From a virus (taxonomy: Duplodnaviria > Heunggongvirae > Uroviricota > Caudoviricetes), in the IMG/VR virus record IMGVR_UViG_2529293043_000042: a DNA stretch of 12,561 nt. One strand, given 5' to 3'. Of the stretch, positions 6,501 to 12,500 are shown piece after piece (position 1 is the stretch's first letter; each line of letters opens with the position of its first letter). Made by a program: the position numbers.

Positions 6501-9500
6501 TTAACGATGAAACCATGCAGGAAATTAACACTCTGCTGATCGCCCTGGATAAAACATGGGATGACGACTTATTGCCGCTCTGTTCCCAGATATTTCGCCG
6601 CGACATTCGTGCATCGTCAGAACTGACACAGGCCGAAGCAGTAAAAGCTCTTGGATTCCTGAAACAAAAAGCCACTGAACAGAAGGTGGCAGCATGACAC
6701 CGGACATTATCCTGCAGCGTACTGGGATCGACGTGAGAGCTGTCGAACAGGGAGATGATGCGTGGCACAAATTACGGCTCGGCGTCATCACAGCTTCAGA
6801 AATTCACAACGTAATAGCAAAACCCCGATCAGGAAAGAAGTGGCCTGACATGAAAATGTCCTACTTCCACACCCTGCTGGCTGAGGTTTGCACCGGTGTG
6901 GCTCCGGAAGTTAACGCTAAGGCTCTGGCCTGGGGAAAACAGTACGAGAACGACGCCAGAACCCTCTTTGAGTTCACTTCCGGCGTGAATGTTACTGAAT
7001 CCCCGATCATCTATCGCGACGAAAGTATGCGCACCGCCTGCTCTCCCGATGGTTTATGCAGTGACGGCAACGGCCTTGAGCTGAAATGCCCGTTTACCTC
7101 CCGGGATTTCATGAAGTTCCGGCTCGGTGGTTTCGAGGCCATAAAATCGGCTTACATGGCCCAGGTGCAGTACAGCATGTGGGTGACACGAAAAGATGCC
7201 TGGTACTTTGCCAACTATGACCCGCGCATGAAGCGTGAAGGCCTGCATTATGTCGTGATTGAGCGGAATGAAAAGTACATGGCAAGTTTTGACGAGATGG
7301 TGCCGGAGTTCATCGAAAAAATGGACGAGGCACTGGCTGAAATTGGTTTTGTATATGGGGAGCAATGGTAATGAAGCATCCTCACGATAATATCCGGGTA
7401 GGCACGATCACTTTCGTCTACTCCGTTACAAAGCGAGGCTGGGTATTTCCCGGCCTTTCTGTTATCCGAAATCCACTGAAAGCACAGCGGCTGGCTGAAG
7501 AGATAAATAATAAACGAGGGGCTGTATGCACAAAGCATCTCCTGTTGAATTAAGAACGAGTATCGGGATGGCACATAGCCTCGCTCAAATTGGAGTCAGG
7601 TTTGTGCCAATACCAGTAGAAACAGACGAAGAATTTCATACGTTAGCCACATCCCTTTCACAAAAGCTGGAAATGATGGCGGCGAAAGCAGAAGCAAACG
7701 AGAGAGACCCGGCATGACAACAACAGAATGCATTTTTCTGGCAGCAGGCTTCATATTCTGTGTGCTTATGCTTGCCGACATGGGACTTGTTCAATGACAC
7801 CTCAGCAGGAAAACGCCCTTCGCAGCATTGCCCGTCAGGCTAATTCTGAAATCAAAAAAGCCAGACAGCAGTTTCCGGATAAAAACGTCGATGACATTTG
7901 CCGTAGCGTACTGAAGAAGCACCGCGAAACGGTAACGCTAATGGGATTCACACCGACTCATTTAAGTCTGGCGATCGGCATGTTAAACGGCGTCTTTAAG
8001 GAGCGATGAACATGAAAAGCAAAATCATCAGGGAGCTACAGGCTCCTTTTTTATTGTTCGCATTCACCCTCAAGCGTATTAACCAACAATTCAGGGATTA
8101 ATGGAAGATGGCAGACATCATTGATTCAGCATCAGAAATTGAAGAATTACAGCGCAATACAGCAATAAAAATGCGTCGCCTGAACTACCAGACTGTATCC
8201 GCAACTCATTGTTGTGAGTGTGGCGATCCGATAGATGAACGAAGACGCCTGGCAGTTCAGGGTTGTCGGACTTGTGCAAGTTGCCAGGAGGATCTGGAGC
8301 TTATCAGTAAACAGAGAGGTTCGAAGTGAGCGAAATTAATTATCAGGCACTGCGTGAAAAGGCAGAGAAAGCAACTAAAGGAAGCTACATCGTAGGGCAT
8401 ACATCTGTTAACCAGCACGGCAATTTAACAGGAGTTTTTGTTTGCCAAAAATGGAAAGGAGAACCCGGTGGTGTGATTGCGGAATGTCATGTTAACTGCC
8501 TGGTTGAAACAGATGTTCAGGCTTATGCAAACGCTGAATTTATTGCTGCCTTTAATCCAAATGTTGCGCTGGCGCTTCTGGATGAACGGGAAAGAAACCA
8601 GCAATACATCAAACGCCGCGACCAGGAGAACGAGGAGATTGCGCTTACGGTTGGGAAGCTGCGTGTTGAGCTTGAAGCAGCAAAATCAAAACTCAACGAG
8701 CAGCGTGAATATTACGAGGGAGTAATCGCGGATGGAAGTAAGCGCATAGCAGAACTGGAAAAACAATGCGCCGAATGGGAGCGAAAAGCATTAAGCAACT
8801 TTGAAGAGTGTGCTGCGATGGCTGAACGTATCGAAGAGATGCAGACAAAATCTGCACCAGATTCGTTTGGCATCATCGGTGAAAATATTCGAACACAGGA
8901 CAATCGAATAACGTCAGATCCCATGTTTTGTGTGTATCAAAAGCGCGAAATCGCTGTTGATGCTGATTATGACCATGACCGGATTGTCTGGGTTGACGAA
9001 GATGGCAATGAAGCCAATAAACGCCATAGTCGTCGTCTCGAGCTACTTCATGAAAACTTTCGAGAGCCACCAGAAAAATGGCGGCGCGTTGCTGTGAAAG
9101 ATATTGATGAATTCGTTACCTGCTGTTTCACCGAACAGGGTTGTAAAGACTACCTGGCAGTCAATGGTCACAATCTTCGCTTGCCATTTATATATGTAAA
9201 AAGCGGTTTCAGGAACGCTGAATATATCGGCATAAGAAACTGGCTTGCTGGCATTCGCATCAAAGGAGAGTGATATGGCGTTAACACACCGCGAACTCTG
9301 TCAGATTGCGTACAAGTTCCTTAAGCGCAACGGTTTCAAGGTTTGTTTTCATGACCGCTTTATAGCTGTAACCAGTACCGGAGAACAGCCAGATGCTATG
9401 GGATTCAGAAATTCAGCATCATGCCTGATTGGCGAAATGTTCTCGTGCTGACTTGTTGGCAGATAGAAAAAAGCGTTTTCGTAAAAATCCGTCTCTTGGA

Positions 9501-12500
9501 ATGGGCGACTGGCGATTCTTTATTAGTGAGCCGGGAATTATTTCAATTGAGGATTTACCACCTGGCTGGGGATTACTTCACGTTGTTAACGGAAGAGTAC
9601 GGAAAGTACATGGGTGGCCCAAGGGTAATTGCTGTTGGGGTAATCCTGACGATAAGCCATTTACTGGAAATAAGCAGGTTGAATGCGATTACATGTTGTC
9701 TGCATTAAGGCGCATGGAGTTGAGAGGGCACCTTAATGAAATATATGACGGTGTAATTGTTAATAAGAAAGAAGGAAACGCGGCATGACCACTATTACCG
9801 ACAAAGAACTGATTAAAGAAATCAAAGAGCGCATAGGCAGCTTGGACGTTCGAGACAATATTGAGCGCCGTGCTTATGAAATTGCACTGGCATCGCTGGA
9901 AGCAGAACCGATAGCGTGGGAATGCGGTGAAAACATAATCCTGTTTAACCCTGACACAGTTGAAGCATACGCAAAACGTGCGGAAATATCACCTAAACCA
10001 CTATTCTCCGCGCCGCCAGCGCTGGTAGTGCCTGATAAGTTGCCGCGTGAATACAGAAACGGTTGGCCTCTTGCGTATAGTGATTATGCTGAAGGCTGGA
10101 ACGACTGCCGCGAAGCCATGCTTCAGGGAGATAAATCATGATTAATCGTATCAAGCTGGAGCACATCCTCGAATATGCCAGGCAGCAGAGGCATATTGGT
10201 CAGCATTGTAAAATTCCACCAGGAGATATGGTTGAAATCATGGAGATTGCCATGCGCAAGGCTGGCAACTCTCCGGTAACTCCGGATGGTTGGATAAGCT
10301 GTAGTGAGCGAATGCCGAACGATAAACAGTATGTTTGGTGTTGGGGGAAGTCTTACGGCTGGACTGAGTGCGATACCTTCGAAGGGTATTACGATTGTTC
10401 GAGAAACAAATGGTGGGCAGTTACTGACAATGGGGAAGAACCGGCATCGAAAGTAACCCACTGGATGCCGCTACCGGAGCCGCCGCAGGAGGTGAAATGA
10501 TGAATTGGCCTGAAGCATTCACCGCAGTTGGAGTTGCAATAGCGGTGGCATTTATTCTGTATTCGCTTTTCCGCTGGGGATAAAGGAATGTTCGCTCTGA
10601 TTCAACGTGGTCAGATATACACGGACAGAGCCGGATACCCTGTGGTGATTACTCGCAGTACTCAGCACTCAGTGTTCTTTCGACGCATGGACGGGCGCTC
10701 CGGACGGGTACGCATTGGTGAGTTCAACAACCTGTTCGAACATATTGACCAACAGGAGTACCGCAAAATTCTGGCGGGCACTGAGCAGGAAATGCGCCTG
10801 AAAAAATTACGCGCAATGCAACGGAGGTGATACATGCATACGGCTTTTGAGTTCTGGGTTCGCAAGACATTCGGCAATCGCTACGACCTGACCCGTGATG
10901 TCGACGGCTTCTACTGCCGTGAAGTTGTGAAACGAATGTTTGACGTGTGGTGCCACTGCCGTGGATGAAAGTTTTATGAGGTTGGCATGCAGACAATCAT
11001 CTATCAGATAACCCCCAGCAAATGGTGTACGGAGAGAGTCCTTATTGCATCAACAGGGCTAAAGCCCGGCACCATCGAGCGGGCCAGAAGAAAGTCATGG
11101 ATGCAGGGAAAAGAATACCGCCATTACGCTGTAGAAGGTGATCCTGGGCATTACAGTGAATGCCTGTACAACATCGAAGAAATTATGCGATGGATCGAAA
11201 ACCAGAAACAACCAGGTGCCAAAAATGCAAGTTCCGGTTAACCTGTTAATGCTCCTGGACGTCTGGGAGGTTTAATGAGTAACGCATCATACCCGACAGG
11301 CGTTGAAAACCATGGCGGATCACTCCGTATATGGTTTCACTATAATGGCAAACGTGTCAGAGAAAACCTCGGTGTTCCTGACACAGCCAAAAACCGGAAG
11401 ATCGCTGGTGAACTTCGCACTTCCGTTTGTTTTGCAATCAGAATGGGGAGTTTCGACTACGCCGCGCAGTTCCCTAATTCCCCTAACCTGAAACACTTTG
11501 GTCTGGGAAAAAGAGAGATAACCGTTAAGGCACTTTCGGAAAAATGGTTGGACCTTAAGAAAATTGAGATTTGTGCGAATGCACTTAACCGTTACCAGTC
11601 AGTAATTAAAAACATGTTACCAATGTTAGGTGAAAAAAAACTGGTTTCATCCATAACAAAAGAGGATTTACTTTTCGTAAGGAGAGATTTGTTGACCGGT
11701 TACCAAAAGCTTTCTAATGGAAAGACTTCTTCCATAAAAGGGCGCTCAGTGGTCACGGTAAACTACTATATGACAACCATAGCTGGAATGTTTCAATTTG
11801 CAACAGATAATGGTTATACCTCAGGAAACCCATTTAACGGTCTGGCTCCCTTAAAAAAGTCCAAGGTAAAACCAGATCCTCTCACCCGTGACGAATTTAT
11901 TCGTTTTATTGAGGCTTGCCGTCATCAACAAACAAAAAACCTGTGGATTCTCGCTGTATACACGGGTATTCGTCACGGGGAGTTGGTATCGCTGGCATGG
12001 GAAGATATAGACCTTAAAGCAAGGACTATAACCATCCGTAGAAATTATACAAAACTTGGCGAATTCACTCCACCAAAAACCGATGCAGGCACCGGAAGGA
12101 CAATTCATCTGGTTCAACCAGCTATTGATGCTCTTAAAAGCCAGGCGGAAATGACCATGCTTGGAAAGCAACATTCTGTAGAGGTGAAGCAGAGGGAATA
12201 TGGGAGAACTGCTGTGCATAAATGCACTTTTGTTTTTAGTCCTCAGGTAACAAAACAGCAGCAGTTGTCCGGACCTCACTACAAGGTTGACTCCATCAGG
12301 GAGTCATGGACAAGTATCTTAAAACGCGCAGGTCTGAGACACAGAAAATCGTACCAATCCAGGCATACTTATGCATGCTGGTCACTTGCCGCAGGAGCTA
12401 ATCCTAGTTTTATCGCAAGCCAGATGGGCCACACAAACGCACAAATGGTATTCAATGTTTACGGAGCATGGATGAAAGACAACAATCACGAACAGATAGA

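Follow-up and report, generated by a model that had tools for sequence, protein, structure and literature searches.

The exo-xis region of bacteriophage lambda and of the Shiga toxin (Stx)-converting phages, known from the work of the Wegrzyn and Donaldson laboratories, begins with the conserved block orf60a-orf63-orf61-orf73-ea22 and continues with a variable gene set (PMC8614690). Here we analyzed positions 8108-10968 of a 12,561-nucleotide (nt) viral DNA (Caudoviricetes; IMG/VR record IMGVR_UViG_2529293043_000042), the whole of which is called the window below. An earlier reading of the same DNA (the original prediction) had described this segment as an accessory island of small open reading frames (ORFs) located between the Red module and xis-int, unrelated to the lambda genes at that position. 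Used as a query, the 2861-nt segment was 100% identical to prophage CP-933V of Escherichia coli O157:H7 EDL933 and 99.9% identical to VT1-Sakai. It is very probably that part of the exo-xis region of this Stx1-converting prophage, CP-933V / VT1-Sakai, which lies next to xis. The region is thus not a new island; it has already been described, in one of the best-known prophages. Our additions are minor and leave the picture of the region unchanged: a family assignment for a predicted nuclease, a probable 28-amino-acid (aa) membrane peptide, and a possible explanation of the conserved Ea22 tail by a Shine-Dalgarno sequence. Because exo-xis genes affect prophage induction, and hence Shiga-toxin release, an inventory of the intact genes in an O157:H7 Stx1 prophage is nevertheless useful.

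On its + strand the window carries genes for a LexA-like repressor, N, Gam, Bet (RecT) and Exo (YqaJ); the region under study comes next and is followed by xis and int. Lying between exo and xis and encoded, like N, gam and bet, on the + strand, the region therefore belongs to a lambdoid prophage's pL (early-left) operon. In the EDL933 annotation the int end of the Stx1 prophage abuts mlrA (yehV). Position, strand and gene order are those found in lambda's exo-xis region. The region contains the following genes.

8108-8329, + strand: orf73, 73 aa, TraR/DksA-type C4 zinc finger, orthologue of lambda Orf73
8326-9273, + strand: ea22, variant V3, 315 aa, start overlapping orf73 (GTGA)
9275-9788, + strand: nuclease pseudogene, predicted MmcB-like PD-(D/E)XK type of 171 aa, split into ORFs 9275-9451 and 9429-9788
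9785-10141, + strand: EaA-type protein, 118 aa, phrog_5117, start overlapping the preceding gene (ATGA)
10138-10500, + strand: DUF551 protein, 120 aa, PF04448 (E 7.8e-19), phrog_924, ATGA start overlap
10497-10583, + strand: hydrophobic ORF of 28 aa (MMNWPEAFTAVGVAIAVAFILYSLFRWG), unannotated in every record compared, overlapping the DUF551 stop (ATGA)
10588-10830, + strand: DUF4222 protein, 80 aa, PF13973 (E 9.3e-16), phrog_285
10834-10968, + strand: 44-aa ORF, phrog_3871 (E 1.1e-32)

The array of at least eight ORFs on one strand that had been proposed for 8108-10968 is therefore real, but two of the eight are the halves of one gene, and the 28-aa ORF had been missed. Profile searches upheld the TraR/DksA zinc-finger, Ead/Ea22-like and DUF551-like assignments (PF01258, PF13935 and PF04448, respectively), and the view that the early-left region of lambdoid phages is non-essential and variable agrees with the literature (PMC8614690). 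The claim that nothing here matches lambda was wrong, since orf73 and ea22 are the counterparts of lambda genes. The supposed island of unrelated genes thus begins with two lambda orthologues. Nor do ea8.5, ea22, ea31 and ea59 all occupy this position in lambda, as had been stated; in the lambda record, only ea8.5 and ea22 are located between exo and xis. The true differences from lambda are the C-terminal domain of Ea22, for which the window carries the V3 type instead, and the genes after ea22, which differ from ea8.5 and orf55 of lambda as well as from those of phage 933W.

Lambda Orf73 is a TraR homologue that binds RNA polymerase (RNAP) and inhibits promoters of rRNA and ribosomal-protein genes, both in vitro and in vivo; it slows host growth and increases phage yield 3-4 fold, and D3 and D6 are required (PMC9239242). 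The window protein is identical to it at 69 of 73 residues (95%). Like lambda Orf73 and F-plasmid TraR, it has 73 aa and the CxxC-17-CxxC signature (C35/C38 and C56/C59, read directly from the window) together with D3 and D6, and it retains the two extra cysteines of the lambda protein. It matched PF01258 (E 1.9e-9) and phrog_54, and was the only product of the region named by NCBIfam. In the lambda RefSeq record orf73 is unannotated although its sequence is present. The window copy differs by four substitutions, RNAP binding being known from the lambda copy. By orthology, the window Orf73 would bind the secondary channel of RNAP and repress rRNA and r-protein promoters, slowing the host and raising phage yield. 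Host takeover, which had been suggested for the small proteins of this region in general, thus applies by orthology to one gene, and it is experimentally established only for its lambda homologue.

The second gene encodes an Ea22 protein whose N-terminal region, including the coiled coil, matched PF13935 (Ead_Ea22) over residues 2-145 (E 4.5e-41). It agrees with lambda Ea22 in its first residues, along a lengthy and almost identical coiled-coil stretch, and in its last eight residues. It is 97% identical to gp07 of phage 1717, the Ea22 of which is listed as variant V3 (PMC10834534); the C-terminal domain is conserved in the alignment and the terminal IKGE is present, which places the window protein in the V3 group of the Ead/Ea22 family. 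Both full-length lambda Ea22 and V3 Ea22 form tetramers (PMC10834534), and the role of Ea22 is pro-lysogenic (PMC7093339). By orthology, the window Ea22 would be a tetrameric coiled-coil protein that shifts the phage towards lysogeny.

The end of ea22 also deserves a comment at the nucleotide level. The C-terminal K-G-E, the significance of which was called unknown in PMC7093339, is encoded by AAAGGAGAGTGA, a strong Shine-Dalgarno sequence just ahead of the ATG of the next gene (9247-9277). The last 26 nt of ea22 are identical in lambda (around 2348), where nothing follows directly. The conserved tail may therefore reflect a constraint on the nucleotide sequence rather than protein function, and this constraint may be a ribosome-binding site or a recombination joint. 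The tail of the DUF551 protein, PPQEV, behaves in the same way: it is encoded by GCAGGAGGTGA, which is a strong Shine-Dalgarno sequence upstream of the 28-aa ORF.

The third gene is broken. ORFs 9275-9451 and 9429-9788 mapped consecutively onto the same PHROG profiles, and the gene measures 514 nt in the window and 516 nt in most related records. Alignment with gp06 of phage 1717 located the lesion at 9429/9430, where ATAGAGGCG is changed to AT--TGGCG by a 2-nt deletion and one substitution. The resulting frameshift replaces E53-A-K55 by G-E-M and leads to a stop six codons later; D40 is kept, but the catalytic D...E-x-K motif is no longer complete. As the lesion falls exactly on E53-x-K55, the window copy cannot be active. 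An intact, in-frame gene of 516 nt is present in Stx2 phage 1717 and in about 700 other E. coli records. We estimate from an evenly spaced listing of records and from region match counts that the broken version occurs in roughly 270-320 records, all of them O157:H7-type genomes. A programmed frameshift was also considered and was ruled out by the approximately 700 in-frame records, by the combination of a 2-nt deletion with a substitution, and by another lesion of the same gene, a deletion of 5 nt, in the Stx2 phage 2851.

The intact 171-aa protein had no Pfam or NCBIfam match, yet its family is large, with 324 matches in a first search; searching with a profile yielded 3298 representative clusters. 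In the family alignments E37, P39-D40, E53-x-K55, S57-R58 and D60 are invariant or nearly so, and intact homologues keep D40, E53 and K55. The fold is a restriction-endonuclease-like alpha/beta core, as expected for a PD-(D/E)XK enzyme; in structure it lies closest to 3dnx (SPO1766), with viral MmcB-like proteins also among its neighbours. The family profile aligned to 3dnx over the motif IE-K-SR-DF--D with a marginal E-value of 0.19. The intact protein gave no match to PF06319 at the gathering score, while 7 of 39 distant relatives matched weakly (best E 2.9e-4). Weak matches to the Holliday-junction resolvase Hjc were obtained with 12 of 28 and 7 of 39 family members; all matches of the family to Hjc and to MmcB-like proteins are below the Pfam thresholds. 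Taken together, the fold and the motif suggest that this large, unnamed phage protein family can be assigned to the MmcB-like PD-(D/E)XK nucleases; in this prophage lineage it is broken at its predicted catalytic motif. It differs from the MmcB-like endonucleases of PF06319 in forming a family of its own, with the window copy a pseudogene. MmcB itself is a PD-(D/E)XK endonuclease implicated in mitomycin-C resistance and crosslink repair (PMC9578287).

The predicted nuclease domain also occurs in other arrangements. Salmonella and E. coli have versions in which it is joined to an N-terminal Ead/Ea22 leader (proteins P0091 and P0009), and in protein P0020 its N-terminal part is fused to a DUF551 C-terminal tail. 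A distant relative, P0376, joins the domain to a TniB-like ATPase region (Pfam TniB, E 3.2e-6), which hints at a transposon-associated branch of the family. The intact gene is common on P1-like phage-plasmids too (250 places in the plasmid matches); in the P1-like MH445380.1 it is present at 3001-3516 and unannotated. The phage 1717 annotation calls the protein similar to P7 Upf89.0.

Downstream of the pseudogene, the genes form a mosaic of modules. The N-terminal module of the 118-aa protein is shared with gp05 of 933W (published as 'Ea22 V2'), and many homologues carry all of the 118-aa sequence joined to DUF551. The arrangement resembles the modular DUF551 proteins P22 EaA and 933W gp05, in that the N-terminal module lies in the 118-aa ORF and DUF551 in the next one; the two modules are fused in a single protein in EaA and gp05, whereas in the window they are separate genes overlapping by ATGA. 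The DUF551 protein scored 68.8 bits against a PF04448 cutoff of 22, and the DUF4222 protein 57.6 bits against a PF13973 cutoff of 27. The 28-aa ORF was intact in all five phages compared, and its divergent copy in PhiR12_2 has many substitutions without a break in the frame. It is probably a real small membrane peptide, judging from its hydrophobic sequence and its conservation. The 44-aa ORF travels with DUF4222, often with this xis, and is annotated in BP-4795, JLK-2012, PhiR12_2 and phi467. From about position 10318 to the 44-aa ORF, the region matched a different set of phages (these same four) than its upstream part did, and the xis-int of the window accompanies the genes from 10318 onward often, but not always. 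Sequence searches of the PDB with Ea22, the 118-aa protein, DUF551 and DUF4222 yielded no meaningful match. The swappable modules would then be the MmcB-like nuclease, the EaA N-terminal module, DUF551, the 28-aa membrane peptide, DUF4222 and the 44-aa ORF; other phages have such modules joined to Ead/EaA N-terminal leaders. Apart from the dead nuclease, the genes after ea22 may encode non-essential modulators that act on host physiology or on the choice between lysis and lysogeny.

The + strand array fills essentially every base of 8108-10968. Starts and stops overlap by 4 nt at 8326 (GTGA) and at 9785, 10138 and 10497 (ATGA); the remaining spacings are 1, 4 and 3 nt, and 18 nt separate the last ORF from xis. 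The description of most ORFs as joined by ATGA/GTGA overlaps was accurate for these four sites and overstated in 'most', as they make up four of eight junctions. For nearly every start, a Shine-Dalgarno sequence lies within the gene before it. The same tight packing continues upstream through orf61, orf63 and orf60a as far as exo, so that 8108 is no natural boundary. The features flanking the region are as follows.

6694-7371, + strand: exo, YqaJ/Exo
7365-7553, + strand: orf60a, DUF1317 (Pfam)
7526-7717, + strand: orf63, DUF1382 (Pfam)
7714-7797, + strand: hydrophobic 27-aa ORF, ATGA overlap with its neighbours, 100% identical in lambda
7794-8009, + strand: orf61-like gene, 71 aa
8006-8101, + strand: 31-aa ORF, ATGA overlap with its neighbours, 100% identical in lambda
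8021-8058, + strand: t2 terminator-like hairpin found by scan, hairpin at 8030-8048, followed by a T tract
10987-11241, + strand: xis, DUF1233 excisionase (Pfam)
11275-12561, + strand: int (Pfam)

With orf60a, orf63, the orf61-like gene, orf73 and ea22 in lambda order, the conserved block is complete. The t2 hairpin is the only punctuation in the packed array downstream of exo. It folds with -10.2 kcal/mol (z -3.27), its 23-nt core (8030-8052) is identical in lambda, 933W, 1717 and 2851, and the same hairpin sequence has been published as the predicted terminator t2 between orf61 and orf73 (PMC4195576).

Since the region shares its strand with N, gam, bet, exo, xis and int, its transcription most likely takes place within the N-antiterminated pL delayed-early operon and would continue past the t2 hairpin, which is located just upstream of orf73. 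The 4-nt overlaps and 1-4-nt gaps, together with the Shine-Dalgarno sequences inside preceding genes, would allow coupled translation. Several points weigh against this picture of a read-through operon of host and lysogeny modulators. Both pL-driven transcription and translational coupling are read only from orientation and spacing. A promoter has been predicted upstream of orf73, and expression has been reported to differ from phage to phage (PMC4195576); the unit may therefore be other than a simple read-through operon. Reports on the effect of Orf73 on phage yield conflict, as discussed in PMC9239242, and five of the eight products are without an assigned function.

The lesions bear on a different account, in which most of the variable part (9275-10968) would be cargo in decay, without a function under present selection in this prophage. 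Besides the frameshift in the window, the 5-nt deletion in phage 2851 (3668-4185) arose independently, and phage 1717 (3513-3870), with its nuclease intact, carries a nonsense codon at codon 45 of the 118-aa gene. Replication gene O of the prophage is truncated by an insertion sequence (IS) element, and four O157:H7 genomes carry the region itself in two pieces that span 4174 nt (e.g., NZ_CP066753.1 1804489-1808662), an IS1203-family transposase being annotated within it. The independent inactivating lesions, the IS1203 insertions and the truncated O indicate that part of the region is without strong selection in these lysogens. General decay nevertheless appears rather unlikely to us, because the other ORFs are intact and 95-100% conserved in hundreds of genomes, the 28-aa ORF has kept its frame despite many substitutions, and the catalytic residues of the nuclease family are invariant across more than 3000 sequence clusters. 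A functional proposal for the nuclease family is that the intact MmcB-like nuclease is a structure-specific DNA endonuclease that aids Red recombination or processes damaged or branched DNA, and does not serve host takeover or anti-defence. Its gene adjoins gam-bet-exo, and the proposal would fit the structural proximity to 3dnx and the viral MmcB-like proteins, the weak PF06319 and Hjc matches, and the implication of MmcB in crosslink repair. Those matches, however, all stay below threshold, and loss of the nuclease in O157 prophages has no known consequence; we consider this putative role unlikely.

The original prediction had also proposed counter-defence as a candidate function, which would make the Ea22 C-terminal domain and the 118-aa, DUF551, DUF4222, 44-aa and 28-aa products proteins directed against host immunity. 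The genes concerned are small early genes, non-essential and highly mosaic. Moreover, a 2026 preprint mapped the OLD inhibitor Oad2 (HK446 gp27) to the equivalent pL-operon position just upstream of xis in a lambdoid phage, reported Oad2 fusions with EaD/Ea22 proteins, and proposed recombination-adjacent lambdoid loci as an anti-immunity hotspot (10.64898/2026.07.10.737580). That hotspot makes counter-defence somewhat plausible as a hypothesis, without support from the present sequence: none of the window ORFs resembles Oad2 (best E 0.45 with phmmer and blastp), searches of Pfam, NCBIfam and PHROGs revealed no homology to anti-defence proteins, and the PADLOC defence models gave no meaningful match to the ORFs of the region. 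Published exo-xis phenotypes concern the lysis-lysogeny decision and host growth (PMC8614690), the published role of Ea22 is pro-lysogenic rather than counter-defensive, several of the candidate genes are independently inactivated in O157 phages, and one candidate ORF pair (9275-9451 and 9429-9788) is a dead gene. We therefore regard counter-defence as improbable for these proteins. Equally improbable, in our judgement, is a more elaborate scheme of cassette shuffling in the xis-proximal region, in which constant Ead/Ea22 and EaA oligomerisation leaders would be combined with interchangeable effectors (the V3 C-terminal domain, DUF551 and the nuclease) that also occur as stand-alone proteins. 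In that scheme the C-terminal tails with their Shine-Dalgarno sequences would act as recombination joints, at least one effector would target host immunity or host DNA, and the nuclease would be counter-selected in O157 lysogens as costly to the host. An exo-xis region with lambda-type orf73 and ea22, followed by variable, non-essential modulators, remains the reading that we prefer.

Some further observations concern the surroundings of the region. The 31-aa ORF at 8006-8101 probably corresponds to the 31-aa lambda peptide detected by ribosome profiling (PMC8614690). The orf61-like sequence forms one 71-aa ORF in the window; in lambda (3213-3525, - strand) it is split into orf61 (61 aa) and an overlapping 60-aa frame, and, compared with the Stx-phage version, lambda therefore appears to carry a frameshift. 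At the left end of the window (7-794), a fragment of an IS3-family transposase with rve domains abuts the gene for replication protein O, which covers positions 2-58 of a 95-position Pfam model; O of this prophage is therefore interrupted by an IS element. One further gene of the window lies on the other strand than N, Gam, Bet and Exo.

Within the window, - strand: SieB

Two antisense ORFs, of 112 aa (10123-10461, - strand) and 70 aa (8712-8924, - strand), were treated as non-genes because they matched only short stretches of tiny PHROGs and have no RefSeq annotation; these small families probably arose from antisense ORFs that had been called in error when other phages were annotated. A tRNA-Ala(cgc) called by ARAGORN at 1763-1845 lies inside the cI-like repressor gene (1565-2212) and is probably a false positive. 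The Rfam scan returned no RNA family inside 8108-10968, and at 5245-5303 it identified the lambda cIII thermoregulator element RF01804 with 88.5 bits.

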